Positions 18,805 through 26,986 of a stretch of DNA of 64,000 nt are shown one piece after another. The stretch is from sequence record PP047754, one strand, 5' to 3'. Below the pieces are notes generated by a model. The model did not search any database, was not told where the DNA came from, and saw only the letters and a list, made by a program, of their open reading frames with translations. How positions within the stretch are numbered: the stretch's first letter is position 1; each line of letters begins with the position of its first letter. A program made the position numbers and the translations under genes. The DNA is from Escherichia phage KEP4.

Positions 18805-18830
18805 CAGAGGCTATAATGGCCTCTGTTTTT
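18805..18830 (+). terminator. rho-independent terminator
   Basis: cagaggc-tataatg-gcctctg hairpin followed by TTTTT. Confidence 0.6.
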
Positions 18831-18849
18831 GTATTCTAGAGAGGATACC

Positions 18850-20076
18850 ATGAAAGATAAACCGTGTGACATTCCTTATTGCGGTGTTCGGGAAGCTAAA
18901 ATTAAATCTGCACATCCCATGTTAAGCCCATTCCATAAACAACTCGCATACGAATGGATGAGCGAGCGCTATAAGATCCACGTGAGAAAGGACGTCCAGC
19001 GTCTTCCTGCTCCTTGGACGGATAATCCCATACTACGGCAGGTCAAGTTCTGTAACGTCCGGAGAGAGCACGACAGGCAGTCTCTTAACCTGATCAATAA
19101 TATCGTCAAGAACGACGCTCTGAGCATGGCCGACAAAATGTTCAACTGTGTTCTGTTCCGCATGTTCAATCTCTGGGATCCGATCAAGGTGGCGCTCGAG
19201 GGCGCTATGACGATTTCAGACTTTGCTAAAATCAACCTGGACGAGACCCGCGCCCGTCTTCAGAAGTTTGAATCTGAAGGTGGTAAGATCTTCACCAACG
19301 CATTCAACACAGGCGGTCTAAAACAATGTCTGGCGTTCCCCGAACTTGTTGTCAACCACAAGGAGCAGCGCTTCGGTGGCATGATGGTTAAGGTACACCG
19401 TGTTGGCCAGGGTGTCGTGGATGAATTGGATTACAAGGTCGCCAAGAAGCTGGTTGAAGAGAATCCTGGGGAGTACACCATTGAGGGTTGGGAGCCGTAC
19501 ATGCCAATGCGTGTCATCCGCTCTTTGAAGGCATTCGTCAACAAGTACCCCGATTACTTCAATGATCTTTTACGTCTTGACTCTCCGCTGAAAGTTTACC
19601 AGCGCATGTATGATGACATTGAAGGGCTTGGGCCATTCCTGGCATATCAGATCTGGGTGGACTTCACATACATCCCTGAGTATCCATTCAGTGAGAATCA
19701 TTTCACTATTGCTGGTCCAGGTTGCCGTGCGGGTATTGACCTGATGTTCCTGGATAAGGACGGCATGACTCATGAAGAATGCATATTCTGGGTTCGTGAT
19801 CATCAGTATCAATTGTTTGCTCAGTATGGTTATGTCCAAGAGCAGTTCTGGTCAGCCGAAGCGCCGGAAGATCAGTGCATGAACGTCATGCAGCTGGAGA
19901 ACATGTTCTGTGAATTGAGCAAGTACACCCGCTGTGTTGAGGCTATCGAGAGAGGGGAAAAGCCACGCGGCAAGGTCGGTTATGATGGAGGCGGGAGATA
20001 CAAAAATCGATGCGATGAAATTGTCCTCAATCGCGGATCGGTCAATTTATTAGATCGTTTGAAGAAACCTGAATAA
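18850..20076 (+). CDS. hypothetical protein, 408 aa, with helix-hairpin-helix-like motif; candidate DNA base-modification enzyme
   Basis: GAGAGGA RBS; DIEGLGPFLAYQIWVDF fits an hxGhGxxxA HhH signature as in DNA-glycosylase-like folds; no P-loop. Confidence 0.3.
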   Translation: MKDKPCDIPYCGVREAKIKSAHPMLSPFHKQLAYEWMSERYKIHVRKDVQRLPAPWTDNPILRQVKFCNVRREHDRQSLNLINNIVKNDALSMADKMFNCVLFRMFNLWDPIKVALEGAMTISDFAKINLDETRARLQKFESEGGKIFTNAFNTGGLKQCLAFPELVVNHKEQRFGGMMVKVHRVGQGVVDELDYKVAKKLVEENPGEYTIEGWEPYMPMRVIRSLKAFVNKYPDYFNDLLRLDSPLKVYQRMYDDIEGLGPFLAYQIWVDFTYIPEYPFSENHFTIAGPGCRAGIDLMFLDKDGMTHEECIFWVRDHQYQLFAQYGYVQEQFWSAEAPEDQCMNVMQLENMFCELSKYTRCVEAIERGEKPRGKVGYDGGGRYKNRCDEIVLNRGSVNLLDRLKKPE

Positions 20077-20189: not shown

Positions 20190-22205
20190 ATGGCAGAATT
20201 CAAACCCTTCGCAACGGCAGTTAATAACAACGTGCTGGCGATGTCCGCAACTGGTCTGTTCATGACCAATATCGATAAAGATGCTCTTTGGGATCTGTAT
20301 CTGGCATCTTTCCCTGCTGGTACCAACCCGCTCTACCGTGAGCGTACTGAGCACGACTGCACCTGCTGTAAACAATTCATCCGTAACATCGGCGGTGTGG
20401 TCACCATCGACTCCGACCTGAACGTAATTTCTATCTGGGACAACATTGATCTGGGTAATGAATATGACGTGGTGGCTGCGGCTCTTTCCGCGTATGTCAA
20501 ACAACACGCAATCGTCGATGTTTATTTTAACGATTCTGCCAAAGTCGGCCTGTCTCACAATCACGAAATGAAAGACGGCAATGTCCGCACCTACAACCAC
20601 TTCCACACCGACCTGCTGGGTAGCTATGTTCTGCGTCCGGACGCAATCGCTTCGAAAAAAGGTGAAATCCGCCAGGCTATTGAATTGTTTGAACGCGGTC
20701 TGCGTGAAATTACTCTGGAATCAGCTGAAATCGTTCTGGAACTGATTGACCAGAATTCTCTGTATCGCGGCGCAGAACACAAAGCAGCAGTGAAGGGATT
20801 TGTTGAAACCAAAAAGGCATATGAACAAATCCCCGAATCAGCCCGTTCTCTGTGGGCATGGCATACTGGATACCGTTCAAACAATCATGTTCCACACGGC
20901 ATCCGTAACACAGTTATCGGCACTCTGCTGACAGATATCAGCGAAGGCGTGGAACTGGAAAAGGCTGTTAAATCGTTTGAATCCAAAGTTGCTCCGGCGA
21001 ACTACAAACGTCCGACAGCGCTGGTTTCAAAATCCATGATCGAAAACGCTCAGAAAGAAGTTATTGCTCTGGGTTTGGAAGACTCACTGGCGCGTCGTTA
21101 TGCGGTTTATGATGATCTGACAATCAACAACGTTCTGTTCGCAGATCTGGCTGCTCAGAAAGCGATGGATCCGTTTGCTCAGCTGGCTGCCGAAGTGAAA
21201 ACTCCGACCAAGTCCCTGGAAAAAGTTGAAGAGATCAGCGTTGATGATTTCCTGAGCAATGTTCTGCCAAAAGCGCATTCAATGGAAGTGCTTGTAGAGA
21301 ATTCTCATACTAGCAACCTGATGTCCCTGGTTGCTCCGGCGAACCCAGATGCGCCTAACCTGTTCAAGTGGAACAACGGTTTCTCCTGGTCTTACAACGG
21401 TGAAGTGACCGATTCCATTAAAGAACGTGTAAAGGCTGCTGGCGGTAAAGTTGACGGGTATCTGCGCGTTTCCTTGGCGTGGCACAATAACGACGACCTC
21501 GATCTGCATATGTTCAACAACATGGAGCACGTTTACTTCCGCGATCGCCGCTCTATGACAGGTGCCCATCTGGATATCGATATGAACGGTATGGATGGTA
21601 TTGATCCAAACCGCGCTCCGGTGGAAAATATCATCTTTACAGATGAAAGCAAGCTGCGCGATGGTGAATACCGTTTCGAAATCCACAACTACAATCAACG
21701 TGAAAAAATCGACGAAGGGTTTGAAGTCGAAGTAGAATACAAAGGCGCAACGCATCGTTTCAGCCATCCTGGCCTGAAAGATCAGGGACGTATCACCGCA
21801 GTCATCTTGACTGTTAAAGACAAACAAGTTGTTGGCATTAAGTCCGAACTGGCTAATGTTGATAAGTCTAAAGAAGTTTGGGGTATCAAGACAGCGACCT
21901 TCCAGAAAGTACAGCTGGTCCTGAACTCACCAAACCATTGGGATGGCGAGCAGACAGGCAACAAGCACGTGTTCTTCATCCTGGAAGGTTGTGCTAATCC
22001 TGAAGGTACTCGTGGTTTCTACAACGAATATCTGAAGCCAGAACTGGATAAACATCGTAAGGTTTTTGAAATGTTGGGTAGTAAAATGAAAGTCCAGCCG
22101 AATGAAAACCAACTGTCCGGTCTGGGATTCTCGACGACGCAACGCAACCATGTGTTCGTCAAAGTGTCCGGCGCGTTTAACCGTACTGTAAAAGTCATTT
22201 TCTAA
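20190..22205 (+). CDS. hypothetical protein, 671 aa, highly-expressed-type codon usage
   Basis: Strong AGGAAG RBS and cassette-like upstream region; N-terminal Cys cluster HDCTCCKQF; no recognised catalytic motif. Confidence 0.5.
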   Translation: MAEFKPFATAVNNNVLAMSATGLFMTNIDKDALWDLYLASFPAGTNPLYRERTEHDCTCCKQFIRNIGGVVTIDSDLNVISIWDNIDLGNEYDVVAAALSAYVKQHAIVDVYFNDSAKVGLSHNHEMKDGNVRTYNHFHTDLLGSYVLRPDAIASKKGEIRQAIELFERGLREITLESAEIVLELIDQNSLYRGAEHKAAVKGFVETKKAYEQIPESARSLWAWHTGYRSNNHVPHGIRNTVIGTLLTDISEGVELEKAVKSFESKVAPANYKRPTALVSKSMIENAQKEVIALGLEDSLARRYAVYDDLTINNVLFADLAAQKAMDPFAQLAAEVKTPTKSLEKVEEISVDDFLSNVLPKAHSMEVLVENSHTSNLMSLVAPANPDAPNLFKWNNGFSWSYNGEVTDSIKERVKAAGGKVDGYLRVSLAWHNNDDLDLHMFNNMEHVYFRDRRSMTGAHLDIDMNGMDGIDPNRAPVENIIFTDESKLRDGEYRFEIHNYNQREKIDEGFEVEVEYKGATHRFSHPGLKDQGRITAVILTVKDKQVVGIKSELANVDKSKEVWGIKTATFQKVQLVLNSPNHWDGEQTGNKHVFFILEGCANPEGTRGFYNEYLKPELDKHRKVFEMLGSKMKVQPNENQLSGLGFSTTQRNHVFVKVSGAFNRTVKVIF

Positions 22206-24026: not shown

Positions 24027-24293
24027 TTCTTCAAAAGTCTTTCAAAATCAATAACGTCCGGCAAAATGCTGGGCGTTTCAATTAATAAGCCAAGGTATAA
24101 TGGCCCAACTGAAAACGCGGGGGAATTTCTTTGTCCAAGCCATTCATTCGTTCCGGAGTTGATTCTCTAGACTCCCAATTTAAGCCGAGCGAAGTTTTAA
24201 TCCAACAAATTGAAACCAATCGTGAATTCATAGAACACATGTTGGCAAAGCCGGAAGGTGAAGCCGCTCAAACCACCAAAGAAGGTAATAACG

Positions 24294-26510
24294 ATGATTG
24301 AATCATTAACATTTAAAAATGCGGTAGCAACCGTCGCGCCGTCTAACCATGTAATCGTTGTGGATATCTCCGGTTCCATGTACCGTTCACTTCCTGAAGT
24401 TCGCAAGCATCTGAAGGAAAATCTCCCGTCTCTGGTTAAACCAGAAGATACCGTCAGCATTCTTTACTTTTCATCCCGTGGTGATTTCGGTACGGTATTC
24501 GCTGGCCGTCAGATCAATAGCGCGACCGATCTCAGTGAAATCAATAAACTGATTGACCGCTTCCTGCAACCGTCCGGTTGTACGGGATTTGTAGAACCTC
24601 TGAAGTTGGCTGCTGAAACCGCGTTGAGCCTGAACAAACCTGGTTATGTCAATAACCTGGCGTTCATGACCGACGGCTATGACAACTGCTGGCGCTCTAA
24701 TGAAATTCTGGCAGCAGCTGAAGTACTGCCCAAGGCGTTCGATAATATTACATTCATCGAATATGGCTGGTATTGTAACCGCGAACTTCTGGCTCTGATG
24801 TCCGAGCGTTCTGGCGCGACTCACGTGTTTGCCGAAGGTCAGACTGAATATCAGACCGAACTGGAAAACGTACTGAAATCATCTACGCCGAAAGTGGTTG
24901 TTGATGTTCCCCTGGTTTACACTCATGCCATCTACGTTGAAAACGGCGTGGCAACTGTGCTAGCCGTACAACCCGATGAAGAACACCCGATTGGCCACGT
25001 CAGCATCCCTGAAAGCGTTTCTCAGCTGTGGGTTGTAAACCCTAACATGATCGACCAGCTGGATAATCTGGCAGACACCCAGGCGGCATACGTGCTGGCA
25101 TTCTATGGCGTGTACACCATGGACGCCGATCTGGTCTGGGCCGCGCTGAAGAAGACGGGTGACGTCCGCTTCATCAAACAATACAGCAACTGTTTCACCA
25201 AGCAGGACTATTCCAACATCAAAGTCGATCTGACCCAGGCTATCGTGGATGAAACTCTACGCGGCGTAGATGGCATCGATTACAATATGGTTCCAGCTGA
25301 AGATGCAACGACCATTGTTGATGTCTTGACCTACCTGGCCGAAGCCGATGTCTCTGTTGTCACTAAGCATCCATTGTTCTCTTACAACAGCATCGGTCGC
25401 GGCACTGTGCAGAAAGTTGATGACACTGAAGACAAGCTGGCTGAACAAATCGCCGAAGCCAAAACCAAAGCAGAGCGTAAAGCGCTGGCTCTCAAACTGG
25501 CTGAGCACGAAGATTGGACACCGGAATTTACTCCGGTTGATGACAAAGGGATTGTCCCAATTAGCAATCTGGTCTACAATTCAGAGCGCCCTAACATCAG
25601 CATTCAGACCGTTCAGCATGGGACGGTTGTTGTGCCGGAGTTCGTACAGAAGAAATATGAACTCCCTGAAGAACTGGGAACCTGGCGTTATCGTAATTAC
25701 ACCATCGTCAAAGATGGAATCATCAACCTGAAGACGATGCCGATTACTGCCGAATCTCCGATTGTCCGAGCTAAGGTTGTCCAAGATTTGATCGCCATGG
25801 GCGTTAATGTATTTGGTGGACCGGAAATCTTCATCGTTAATTTAGAAAGCGTTCCGATGGTCAACCGCGCCATGACCAAGAACATCAGTGCTGCCGAATT
25901 CTTCGCTGACAACGTTCGTCGCGAAGCGCTGAAGGCAAAACAGAAAGTTCTGAAATTCTATCGTGATGAACTGGTTGGCAAAGGCAATGCAACTGGTCTG
26001 GCTTCTAAATATGGTAAAGAAGCCGCCGATTTCTTGTCGGCAAATGGCATTCGCGACTACGGGTTCTCGCCGAAAACTACTTCTGTGGAATCAACCGATG
26101 TCTACATGAGCCGTGAGCTGAATGTGAAAATCAAAGGTGCTTCGTCGCTGCCGAGCATTGCGTCAGTTATCAAAAAGCAAGCAGATGGTAAAAAACTGAA
26201 TGTCGCTGATCAGTTGATTGCCAATGCTTTGGCCGAATACGACGCTTTTGTTAAATCGCCAATGATCACCAGCGTACCTGAAGAGACTCAGAAAAAGCTG
26301 ATTGAAAGCTGGATCGGGGACGCAGCAAAAGCGGCCATTAACGAAGTCCGCGCCCTGAACAAAACTCTGTCTAAAGTAGTTTACGGCATCGTCGCTGGTC
26401 ATGGTTGGTTCACTGATTTGGATCTGGAAGAGTCTACGATGGATGTAGAAGTTGATGGGGTGAAATACACCGTCACTGCCGAACTGGCCGAAAAAGAAAT
26501 CAAAATCTAA
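24294..26510 (+). CDS. von Willebrand factor A (vWA) domain protein, 738 aa
   Basis: MIDAS motif VVDISGSM (DxSxS) near the N-terminus, then MTDGYDN; ORF-track start 24258 is a GTG, ATG 24294 chosen. Confidence 0.6.
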   Translation: MIESLTFKNAVATVAPSNHVIVVDISGSMYRSLPEVRKHLKENLPSLVKPEDTVSILYFSSRGDFGTVFAGRQINSATDLSEINKLIDRFLQPSGCTGFVEPLKLAAETALSLNKPGYVNNLAFMTDGYDNCWRSNEILAAAEVLPKAFDNITFIEYGWYCNRELLALMSERSGATHVFAEGQTEYQTELENVLKSSTPKVVVDVPLVYTHAIYVENGVATVLAVQPDEEHPIGHVSIPESVSQLWVVNPNMIDQLDNLADTQAAYVLAFYGVYTMDADLVWAALKKTGDVRFIKQYSNCFTKQDYSNIKVDLTQAIVDETLRGVDGIDYNMVPAEDATTIVDVLTYLAEADVSVVTKHPLFSYNSIGRGTVQKVDDTEDKLAEQIAEAKTKAERKALALKLAEHEDWTPEFTPVDDKGIVPISNLVYNSERPNISIQTVQHGTVVVPEFVQKKYELPEELGTWRYRNYTIVKDGIINLKTMPITAESPIVRAKVVQDLIAMGVNVFGGPEIFIVNLESVPMVNRAMTKNISAAEFFADNVRREALKAKQKVLKFYRDELVGKGNATGLASKYGKEAADFLSANGIRDYGFSPKTTSVESTDVYMSRELNVKIKGASSLPSIASVIKKQADGKKLNVADQLIANALAEYDAFVKSPMITSVPEETQKKLIESWIGDAAKAAINEVRALNKTLSKVVYGIVAGHGWFTDLDLEESTMDVEVDGVKYTVTAELAEKEIKI

Positions 26511-26518
26511 ATCTAATT

Positions 26519-26540
26519 GGCGGGGAAACCCGCCTTTACT
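26519..26540 (+). terminator. stem-loop after vWA gene
   Basis: ggcggg-gaaa-cccgcc hairpin followed by TTTACTTT. Confidence 0.45.
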
Positions 26541-26548
26541 TTCAGGAA

Positions 26549-26866
26549 ATGAATATGAGCAACAAACCGACTTATGTTGATGTCATGCGCGATTTGGCCC
26601 AATACGCATGTGACAACCTGAACATGGAAACTTGGCGCGACGGCGATCATAAAGAAAAGTTCGATAATATCGACGACAACATCGATGCGTTGGCTCCTCT
26701 TCGGGCCAAGAGCGATCTCGGCGGTGATGATCTTGACATGATTGAACTCATCATGGAAGTTGAAGAACAATATGATGTTGAAATCAGTGATGACTGGGTA
26801 GGCAAACATGGTGATGATCCCACGCTCGGCGAATTAGCTGAATTGGTAGTTGCCCTCAGCAAGTAA
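26549..26866 (+). CDS. acyl carrier protein-like protein with Ser-to-Asp at the attachment site, 105 aa
   Basis: DLGGDDLDMIELIMEVEEQYDVEISDD aligns with E. coli ACP [27 protein letters not shown]; the phosphopantetheinylated Ser is Asp; AGGA RBS. Confidence 0.55.
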   Translation: MNMSNKPTYVDVMRDLAQYACDNLNMETWRDGDHKEKFDNIDDNIDALAPLRAKSDLGGDDLDMIELIMEVEEQYDVEISDDWVGKHGDDPTLGELAELVVALSK

Positions 26867-26874
26867 ACCAAAAG

Positions 26875-26986
26875 AATCCCCAATATTTATTGGGGATTTT
26901 TACTTTTAGGGGTTTACTTCTTCTAAAGAATATCCTATTATTCAATAACTGGCTAACGTGGGGTTGGCTAGAAAAGGAGATACAAA
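26875..26986 (+). promoter_or_regulatory. early promoter + stem-loop cassette (PeSL-like), copy 2
   Basis: Hairpin aatcccc/ggggatt + TTTTT, TTTACT (26913-26918) - 17 bp - TATTAT (26936-26941), ttattcaataa box, AAAAGGAGA RBS. Confidence 0.5.

Follow-up and report, generated by a model that had tools for sequence, protein, structure and literature searches.

An acyl-carrier-protein look-alike of Escherichia phage KEP4 with an acidic residue in place of the attachment serine, tentatively a docking mimic

Acyl carrier protein (ACP) is among the most connected bacterial proteins: the synthesis of fatty acids, lipid A, lipoate and biotin draws on it, and its partners further include MukB, SpoT, IscS and SecA. 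In Escherichia phage KEP4 (record PP047754, of which a stretch of 64,000 nucleotides, called the window here, was analysed), a small gene next to that of a vWA protein encodes a protein with the signature of ACP, in which aspartate stands at the place of the serine that bears phosphopantetheine. The question raised by this locus is what an ACP without its attachment serine could do for a phage, and with which proteins, of the host or of the phage itself, it might interact.

The ACP-like gene and its predicted fold

The region of the ACP-like gene matches Salmonella phages GEC_vB_GOT and SeF3a at 100% identity and Vi01 at ~99%, and by its sequence the stretch is Kuttervirus, of the Ackermannviridae. 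Coordinates of all features are collected in Table 1. Since the N-termini of homologues (MSxKPTY) match the third codon of the listed reading frame, and an AGGA precedes the ATG of that codon by 7 nt, the true start is probably ATG 26555, which gives a protein of 103 aa.

The protein matches the Pfam family PP-binding (PF00550) with E=4.7e-7 and 30.4 bits (gathering cut-off 20.8), and phrog_4154, named "acyl carrier protein", with E=4e-55, while against all NCBIfam ACP models it attains at most 33 bits, the cut-offs of these models being 66–146. Its best matches among PDB sequences (HMMER) are those of the Bacillus subtilis ACP, 2x2b and 1hy8 (E ~6e-7), and its similarity to enterobacterial AcpP is no closer than that to the B. 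subtilis protein. In the HMMER alignment the segment DLGGDDLDMIELIMEVEEQYDVEISDD aligns with B. subtilis ACP, with DLGGDDLD of the phage protein placed on DLGADSLD of the PDB sequences, and D61 (codon 26729-26731) falls on the DSL serine.

An AlphaFold2 model, built with an alignment of 19 homologues, has a mean pLDDT of 86 and a pTM of 0.80, and contains the four helices of ACP (residues 9–23, 61–75, 81–86 and 93–103) plus two further helices in the loop-I insert. When this model was compared with the PDB by Foldseek, every top match was an ACP, with probability ~1.0 and TM of 0.75–0.81 (target-normalised). The predicted pI of 4.05 equals that of E. coli ACP, and the net charge is about -18. 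The preliminary description of this DNA, made from the letters alone, had taken the protein for an ACP look-alike with Asp in place of the DSL serine and had named structure prediction as a check; the PF00550 match, the alignment with PDB sequences and the AlphaFold2/Foldseek result bear out both points, the ACP fold being predicted with good confidence. Between helices III and IV, the invariant W83/GDDPT motif is a candidate for a second interaction surface, judging from the alignment. A PADLOC run on the ACP-like protein, the vWA protein and the small upstream ORF returned no match for any of the three.

Table 1. Features of the ACP-like locus (positions in the window).
Feature	Position	Strand	Basis or remark
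vWA protein, 750 aa as listed; upstream neighbour	24258..26510	+	ORF list, Pfam
GC-rich hairpin GGCGGGgaaaCCCGCC with weak T tract, in the 38-nt vWA/ACP-like gap	26519..26534	+	sequence, hairpin search
AGGA upstream of the ACP-like ATG	26544-26547	+	read from sequence
ACP-like ORF, 105 aa as listed	26549..26866	+	stop TAA 26864-26866
Two-helix insert in loop I, residues 27-48; sequence-variable, family-specific, not in canonical ACP	26627..26692	+	model, alignment
DLGGDDLD motif, residues 56-63; D61 at the place of the phosphopantetheine-bearing serine	26714..26737	+	alignment, codons
Helix II, the ACP recognition helix, residues 61-75	26729..26773	+	DSSP of model, conservation
W83-x-G85...G88-D-D-P-T92, invariant family-specific motif between helices III and IV	26795..26824	+	alignment
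Palindromic hairpin AATCCCCAAT..ATTGGGGATT after the ACP-like gene	26875..26898		reported on the - strand

The attachment site and the docking face

In the 19 close cluster representatives (56–96% identity) the motif reads DLGGD[D/E]LD, with position 61 being Asp in 4, Glu in 15 and Ser in none. The 9 distant full-length relatives (34–52% identity), collected by searching 1.84 billion cluster representatives exhaustively with a profile, all have D or E at the site as well, within motifs such as DCVGDELD, DFGCDELD, DLQGDDLD, DMMGDDLS, DFWADELD, DFDADELD and ELDGDDLD. No Ser-bearing member was found among the close and distant relatives (to ~34% identity), so the comparison with homologues from related phages that the preliminary description had proposed leaves D or E in 28 cluster representatives, and in ~40 loci. 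Since the site is restricted to Asp and Glu, and is never Ala, Gly, Thr or Asn, the carboxylate appears to be positively selected, and the change is not a neutral loss of serine. An Asp/Glu-only site would suit a protein that imitates the phosphodiester of holo-ACP, or that ligates a metal, better than a simple "apo" state. In the model, D/E61 lies in the first turn of helix II, a position that is necessarily accessible in real ACPs, and it is presumably exposed here too.

The surface by which ACP docks to its partners, through the contacts of helix II, is kept in this family while the cofactor-bearing serine is gone. The equivalents of D35, L37, D38, E41, M44, E47, E48, I54 and D56 of E. coli ACP (EcACP) are invariant, and so are the helix II residues L62, D63, E66, M69, E72 and E73. 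The residues of ACP that form ion pairs with AcpS are D35, E41 and E47/E48 (bioRxiv 10.1101/2025.01.28.635281); all of these belong to the nine invariant equivalents, in agreement with the earlier statement that the acidic recognition helix is retained. Phosphopantetheinylation at another residue had also been considered, and here the close and distant family alignments hold no other conserved Ser in a PPTase-like or DSL-like context, the sole semi-conserved Ser being the N-terminal one beside the initiator Met.

The means of loading a carrier were also sought. A tblastn search with approximate query sequences found no PPTase of the AcpS or Sfp type in Ackermannviridae records, and within 14 kb on either side of the gene there is no acyl-handling enzyme (KS, AT, adenylation or acyltransferase), the genes there being those of DNA metabolism, lysis, the vWA protein and unfamiliar ones; no such enzyme lies near the ACP-like loci of Limestonevirus and Taipeivirus either. 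Because the protein has no acceptor Ser, and neither a phage PPTase (by tblastn) nor an acyl enzyme nearby was found, it cannot serve as a conventional carrier, and "acyl carrier protein" is the wrong label for it, in classification as in annotation.

The locus, its spread and acidic-site look-alikes elsewhere

The neighbouring vWA protein probably starts at ATG 24294, giving 738 aa, because its homologues (733–738 aa) begin 12 codons inside the listed ORF. Its MIDAS is complete (D24-x-S26-x-S28, T97 and D127 in the 738-aa numbering), and these five residues are conserved in 44 sequences, down to 32% identity; the protein also contains a beta-sandwich, and a large C-terminal region lies outside the top fold matches. 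The gap between the two genes is 38 nt, in line with the preliminary description, which had placed the ACP-like gene directly downstream of the vWA gene. At the position equivalent to the hairpin in this gap, a terminator is annotated in Klebsiella phage May. As a promoter of its own for the ACP-like gene would not fit beside the hairpin, the two genes are presumably co-transcribed by read-through. The hairpin that follows the ACP-like gene has a T-rich tail on the + strand, as read from the sequence, and is terminator-like, so that it may mark the end of the transcription unit.

The order of the vWA gene followed by the ACP-like gene recurs in Kuttervirus, Limestonevirus PP35 and Taipeivirus May, as well as in all divergent metagenomic contigs with enough flank, where ACP-like identity goes down to 34% and the outer neighbours vary. 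Phages of the Serratia phiMAM1/3M type have a short, 89-aa version of the ACP-like protein (DLWFDELD), encoded ~870 nt downstream of the vWA gene. The vWA family, with 486 phage records, is more widespread than the ACP-like gene, with 271, and its bearers include the T4-like Pseudotevenvirus and Slopekvirus, Shewanella Thanatos-1 and Pseudomonas pf16. Near the vWA genes of Miller, Thanatos-1, pf16 and Aeromonas phiA8-29 (Ackermannviridae), six-frame ORFs searched with Pfam and the family HMM contain no ACP-like protein. Phage pf16 does encode a 163-aa "carrier domain-containing protein" away from its vWA homologue (BFVD A0A1S5R3K8; locus L013).

Several other features of the surroundings were recorded. 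A 56-aa ORF (phrog_8656, 24131-24301), which is 56–70 aa long in distant relatives, overlaps the start of the vWA gene. In Taipeivirus May (L003 39-2554) and in two metagenomic relatives (L004 1027-3542, L007 2987-5502), the genes of ribose-phosphate pyrophosphokinase and NAMPT, a NAD+ salvage pair, stand directly upstream of the block of small ORF, vWA and ACP-like genes; the pair is missing at that position in the window, and in Dickeya phage PP35 only a fragment is annotated. A 5-hmdU DNA kinase (PF18723, E=1.5e-83; 18829-20076), the thymidine-hypermodification enzyme of ViI-like phages, is encoded 6.5 kb upstream of the ACP-like locus, followed by a 671-aa protein (20190-22205) with no Pfam match, whose counterpart in L007 is labelled DUF8224.

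By tblastn, the ACP-like protein was found in 271 of 50,697 phage records, many of them with the annotation "acyl carrier protein", from phages of Salmonella, Klebsiella, Escherichia, Dickeya, Shigella, Enterobacter and Serratia. A record labelled "Enterococcus phage Efm 3-10" (OR844942.1, 111 kb) encodes a 96%-identical Kuttervirus copy, and is probably a mislabelled or contaminated assembly. Median pairwise dN/dS values are 0.18 (ACP-like gene), 0.10 (vWA gene) and 0.07 (149-aa gene downstream); a value of ~0.18 means purifying selection, and therefore the gene is functional. The ACP-like protein diverges 2–3 times faster than its neighbours, with 46 columns invariant in the family at 56–96% identity. 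In L037, the vWA protein shares 96% and the downstream genes 95–97% identity with the window, against only 61% for the ACP-like protein, which shows allele exchange at this locus; phage Sajous1 behaves likewise. The locus can be described as a mosaic hot-spot, at which Kuttervirus flanks of 95–97% identity enclose alleles of 61–64% (L037, Sajous1), the swapped alleles being an Asp-type of 105 aa and a Glu-type of 107–110 aa. Fast divergence and swapping of alleles are typical of genes at the interface with the host.

With respect to expression, mass spectrometry of CsCl-purified Sajous1 virions yielded a single spectrum of the ACP-like protein and a single one of the vWA protein (PMC10892097), and therefore both are expressed and not structural. 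The literature on the gene gives annotation only (PMC3220722, PMC10892097): searches for function, expression timing and a link to anti-defence returned annotations, with no mention of the missing serine or of a test of function, and nothing relevant came from the literature on the CBA120 transcriptome.

Acidic residues at this site are also present outside the family. IMG/VR was scanned with matched degenerate DNA patterns, of which the acidic one was D-[D/E]-L-D-x-[IV]-E-x-x-M-x-x-E and the Ser version covered TCN codons only. The acidic pattern gave 65 matches, 60 of which were confirmed as ACP-like ORFs, ~22 from Ackermannviridae and ~38 from unrelated viral contigs (16–500 kb, many of them jumbo phages); many of these ~38 proteins have 75–95 aa and are canonical and AcpP-like save for the Ser. 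Since the Ser pattern gave at least 120 matches (116 confirmed among the matches listed) versus 65, Ser-type viral ACPs are the commoner ones, and Ser is kept in all eight cultured phages sampled (phiRSL1, RP13, PhiXhv-12, Bajun, R6L, helene, BCSR5 and 10AMN). The acidic-type genes outside Ackermannviridae lie in nucleotide-metabolism or accessory regions of phages, without a vWA gene, and an all-against-all BLAST of the 38 loci found no recurrent neighbour, as only close relatives share neighbours. Because ~38 unrelated contigs carry such look-alikes without vWA or a shared neighbour, the function would belong to the ACP-like protein itself.

Some of these proteins have unusual architectures or surroundings. 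In jumbo-phage contigs of ~230 kb (L044 and L048 3875-5074; also L181 and L169), an acidic-site ACP-like domain (YNLDDLDVVE) forms the N-terminus of a 397-aa protein whose C-terminal region is unrelated, and in L047, L195, L202 and L231 the domain is embedded in longer proteins. Five bacterial ACP-fold proteins brought up by the profile search (P0090, P0100, P0110, P0137 and P0067), on long bacterial contigs of up to 784 kb, have DLGAD[D/E]LD for DSLD together with lipoprotein signal peptides, and by sequence look like exported serine-less ACP look-alikes. In L019-L021 the acidic-site gene adjoins a gene of the mandelate racemase/enolase family. Two unrelated viral contigs (L185 3995-6524, L202 122-4714) combine the acidic-site ACP-like gene with a J-domain/kinase-like gene and that of a 307-aa "DVTGSM" protein, of a highly conserved family with more than 6,000 clusters and no Pfam match; L202 also has a PurA-like gene. 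This protein was considered as a second vWA association and not confirmed as such, as it has no Pfam match, no PDB sequence match and an hhalign probability of 5–15%. In bacterial loci (L234-L240), an NrtR-linked operon encodes a 341-aa protein, a 310-aa family and an adenylosuccinate-synthetase-like protein beside integrases and transposases, and no ACP-like neighbour of the 310-aa family was found there; the 307/310-aa "DVTGSM" operon may be an uncharacterised mobile system.

Possible roles and comparison with known systems

To hypothesize, a small acidic protein of the ACP fold would act by docking only, and not by carrying acyl groups. It would offer its helix II face to the usual binding partners of ACP, its Asp/Glu carboxylate would sit where holo-ACP has the phosphodiester or would ligate an active-site metal, and as a decoy it would compete with host AcpP for one or more clients in infection. 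Candidate targets, which we infer from their recognition of helix II, would be AcpS, MukB, SpoT, PlsB and the Fab or Lpx enzymes. Our preferred reading, held tentatively and at somewhat under an even chance, is that the protein is a non-acylatable docking mimic of ACP and, in that case, probably such a decoy; the binding of a host client, the identity of this client and the benefit to the phage are what we infer. A decoy fits because some clients of ACP need no prosthetic group, the ATPase of MukB being stimulated equally by apo- and holo-AcpP (PMC8602292), and a host-directed role fits because the same substitution occurs in unrelated phages without a common neighbour, and because the evolution of the gene is fast and mosaic. 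Against the decoy, the helix II residues are partly structural, so that their invariance does not prove binding of clients; the family's own surfaces, namely the loop-I insert and the W83/GDDPT motif, suggest a partner specific to it, for which the vWA protein is a candidate; and the ACP-like gene always adjoins the vWA gene in loci of the Ackermannviridae type. As host AcpP is present at ~100 uM (PMC8602292), the decoy would also need high affinity or high expression.

The partner could thus be a phage protein and not one of the host, because the constant vWA neighbour has a complete MIDAS that needs a ligand carboxylate. In this alternative, the main one, which we regard as unlikely but as one of real weight, the ACP-like protein would serve the vWA protein as accessory subunit or ligand, D/E61 would complete the coordination of the MIDAS metal, and the ACP fold would have been recruited as a plug, regulator or adaptor. 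The position of the gene directly 3' of the ~740-aa vWA gene in Kuttervirus, Limestonevirus, Taipeivirus and their metagenomic relatives, the probable co-transcription across a 38-nt gap with a hairpin, the conservation of the MIDAS in 44 sequences and the equal trace level of both proteins in Sajous1 are all consistent with it; the interchange of D and E suits a demand for a carboxylate, and the invariant W83/GDDPT surface suggests a family-specific partner. However, gene order is generally conserved in this phage family, which makes adjacency weak evidence, the vWA records outnumber the ACP-like ones (486 versus 271, with Miller, Thanatos-1, pf16 and phiA8-29 as examples of vWA without a nearby ACP-like gene), ~38 viral contigs have an acidic-site look-alike without vWA, and the ACP-like gene swaps alleles independently of its vWA neighbour. 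A docking mimic and a ligand of vWA are not mutually exclusive, as the ACP-like protein could be an adaptor.

The remaining alternatives concern charge, loading and decay. Small acidic phage proteins are often nucleic-acid mimics, for example T7 gp5.9 against MukBEF, and ACP is known to bind cations where helix II begins, at a site that an extra carboxylate in DLGGD[D/E]LD would strengthen; with a net charge of about -18 and a pI of 4.05, the protein might therefore be a generic polyanion, a DNA mimic or a binder of divalent cations, with its ACP-like sequence as ancestry only. We find this improbable, since conservation is position-specific and falls on the residues that contact ACP partners, and not on general acidity, since changes of charge fall in variable regions, and since a monomeric four-helix bundle of ~100 aa offers no obvious DNA-like array of charges. 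Very improbable is a genuine carrier that is loaded non-canonically, at another residue or through the Asp/Glu carboxylate itself: the protein does pass the PP-binding threshold of Pfam, and T8 and T92 are invariant in the family alignment, but it has no conserved Ser in a DSL-like context, no PPTase was found in these phages by tblastn with approximate queries, no adenylation, KS, AT or other acyl-handling gene lies nearby, and its 33 bits stand against an NCBIfam ACP cut-off of 70. Finally, loss of the catalytic serine and divergence faster than that of the neighbours could be expected of an acpP gene that was captured, has lost its function and is decaying, but this is barely credible for a gene that is intact in ~270 phage genomes of several genera, with 46 invariant columns, a median dN/dS of 0.18, a serine site restricted to D/E and a peptide detected in Sajous1.

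The substitution itself is solid, and it points to a broader class that has so far gone unrecognised. In a wider reading, which we put forward as rather doubtful, acidic-site ACP look-alikes of Ackermannviridae, of unrelated viral contigs and of bacterial lipoproteins form a distinct and widespread class of non-acylatable holo-ACP mimics, or of ligands of metal sites (MIDAS, PPTase Mg2+), which lets phages interfere with the ACP hub of the host. If so, this would be a new phage route to that hub, with AcpS, MukBEF, SpoT and lipid and lipid A synthesis within reach. If the docking mimic proposed for the window's own protein is real, it would serve as a selective, naturally occurring probe or inhibitor of the ACP hub, and represent an undescribed type of host-takeover or counter-defence factor; our search of the literature gave no precedent for a phage-encoded serine-less ACP mimic, which is not proof of absence. 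If instead the vWA protein is the partner, this would be the first functional handle on a vWA family of ~490 large phage genomes. Apart from mechanism, hundreds of genomes of Vi01-like phages, which are candidates for therapy, annotate the gene as "acyl carrier protein", a name that implies an auxiliary metabolic function which this phage protein cannot perform.

Compared with bacterial type II ACP, such as AcpP of E. coli and Salmonella, the phage protein shares the four-helix fold, the signature DLGxDxLD...E..M..EE..F...I.D, the pI and all acidic residues that contact AcpS and clients. It differs from AcpP in the change of Ser36 to Asp/Glu, in the 22-residue two-helix insert of loop I, in the W-x-G...GDDPT insertion before helix IV, in scoring far below the NCBIfam equivalog cut-offs for ACP, and in that no partner enzymes are encoded nearby. 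It is non-loadable, as are apo-ACP and E. coli ACP mutated at S36; Keating, Carey and Cronan are said to have reported in 1995 that apo-ACP inhibits growth. In the S36T mutant, phosphopantetheinylation and acylation are impossible (PMC3340395). Unlike these mutants, the phage protein is natural, with a selected carboxylate in place of a neutral change, and with family-specific surfaces.

The Ser-bearing phage ACPs (ORF083 of Ralstonia phiRSL1, and those of Xanthomonas PhiXhv-12, Brevundimonas Bajun, Erythrobacter R6L and Vibrio helene) are likewise small, of the ACP fold and named "acyl carrier protein", but have DSLD still in place (DSIE in RP13), open to modification by a PPTase of the host, whereas Ackermannviridae and the ~38 IMG/VR contigs have D[D/E]LD. 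With regard to the vWA protein, it is known that a MIDAS takes a ligand carboxylate, as the integrin I domain does with Asp/Glu, and the MIDAS of Rea1/MDN1 with the UBL domains of Ytm1, Rsa4 and NLE1. Unlike in these pairs, the putative small partner here has the ACP fold and not that of UBL, and the vWA family is widespread without such a partner. There is also a likeness to the decoys Ocr and T7 gp5.9, which are also small, highly acidic and fast-evolving phage proteins thought to occupy a binding site of the host; Ocr and gp5.9 mimic DNA, whereas the ACP-like protein would mimic a protein cofactor of the host, ACP itself.
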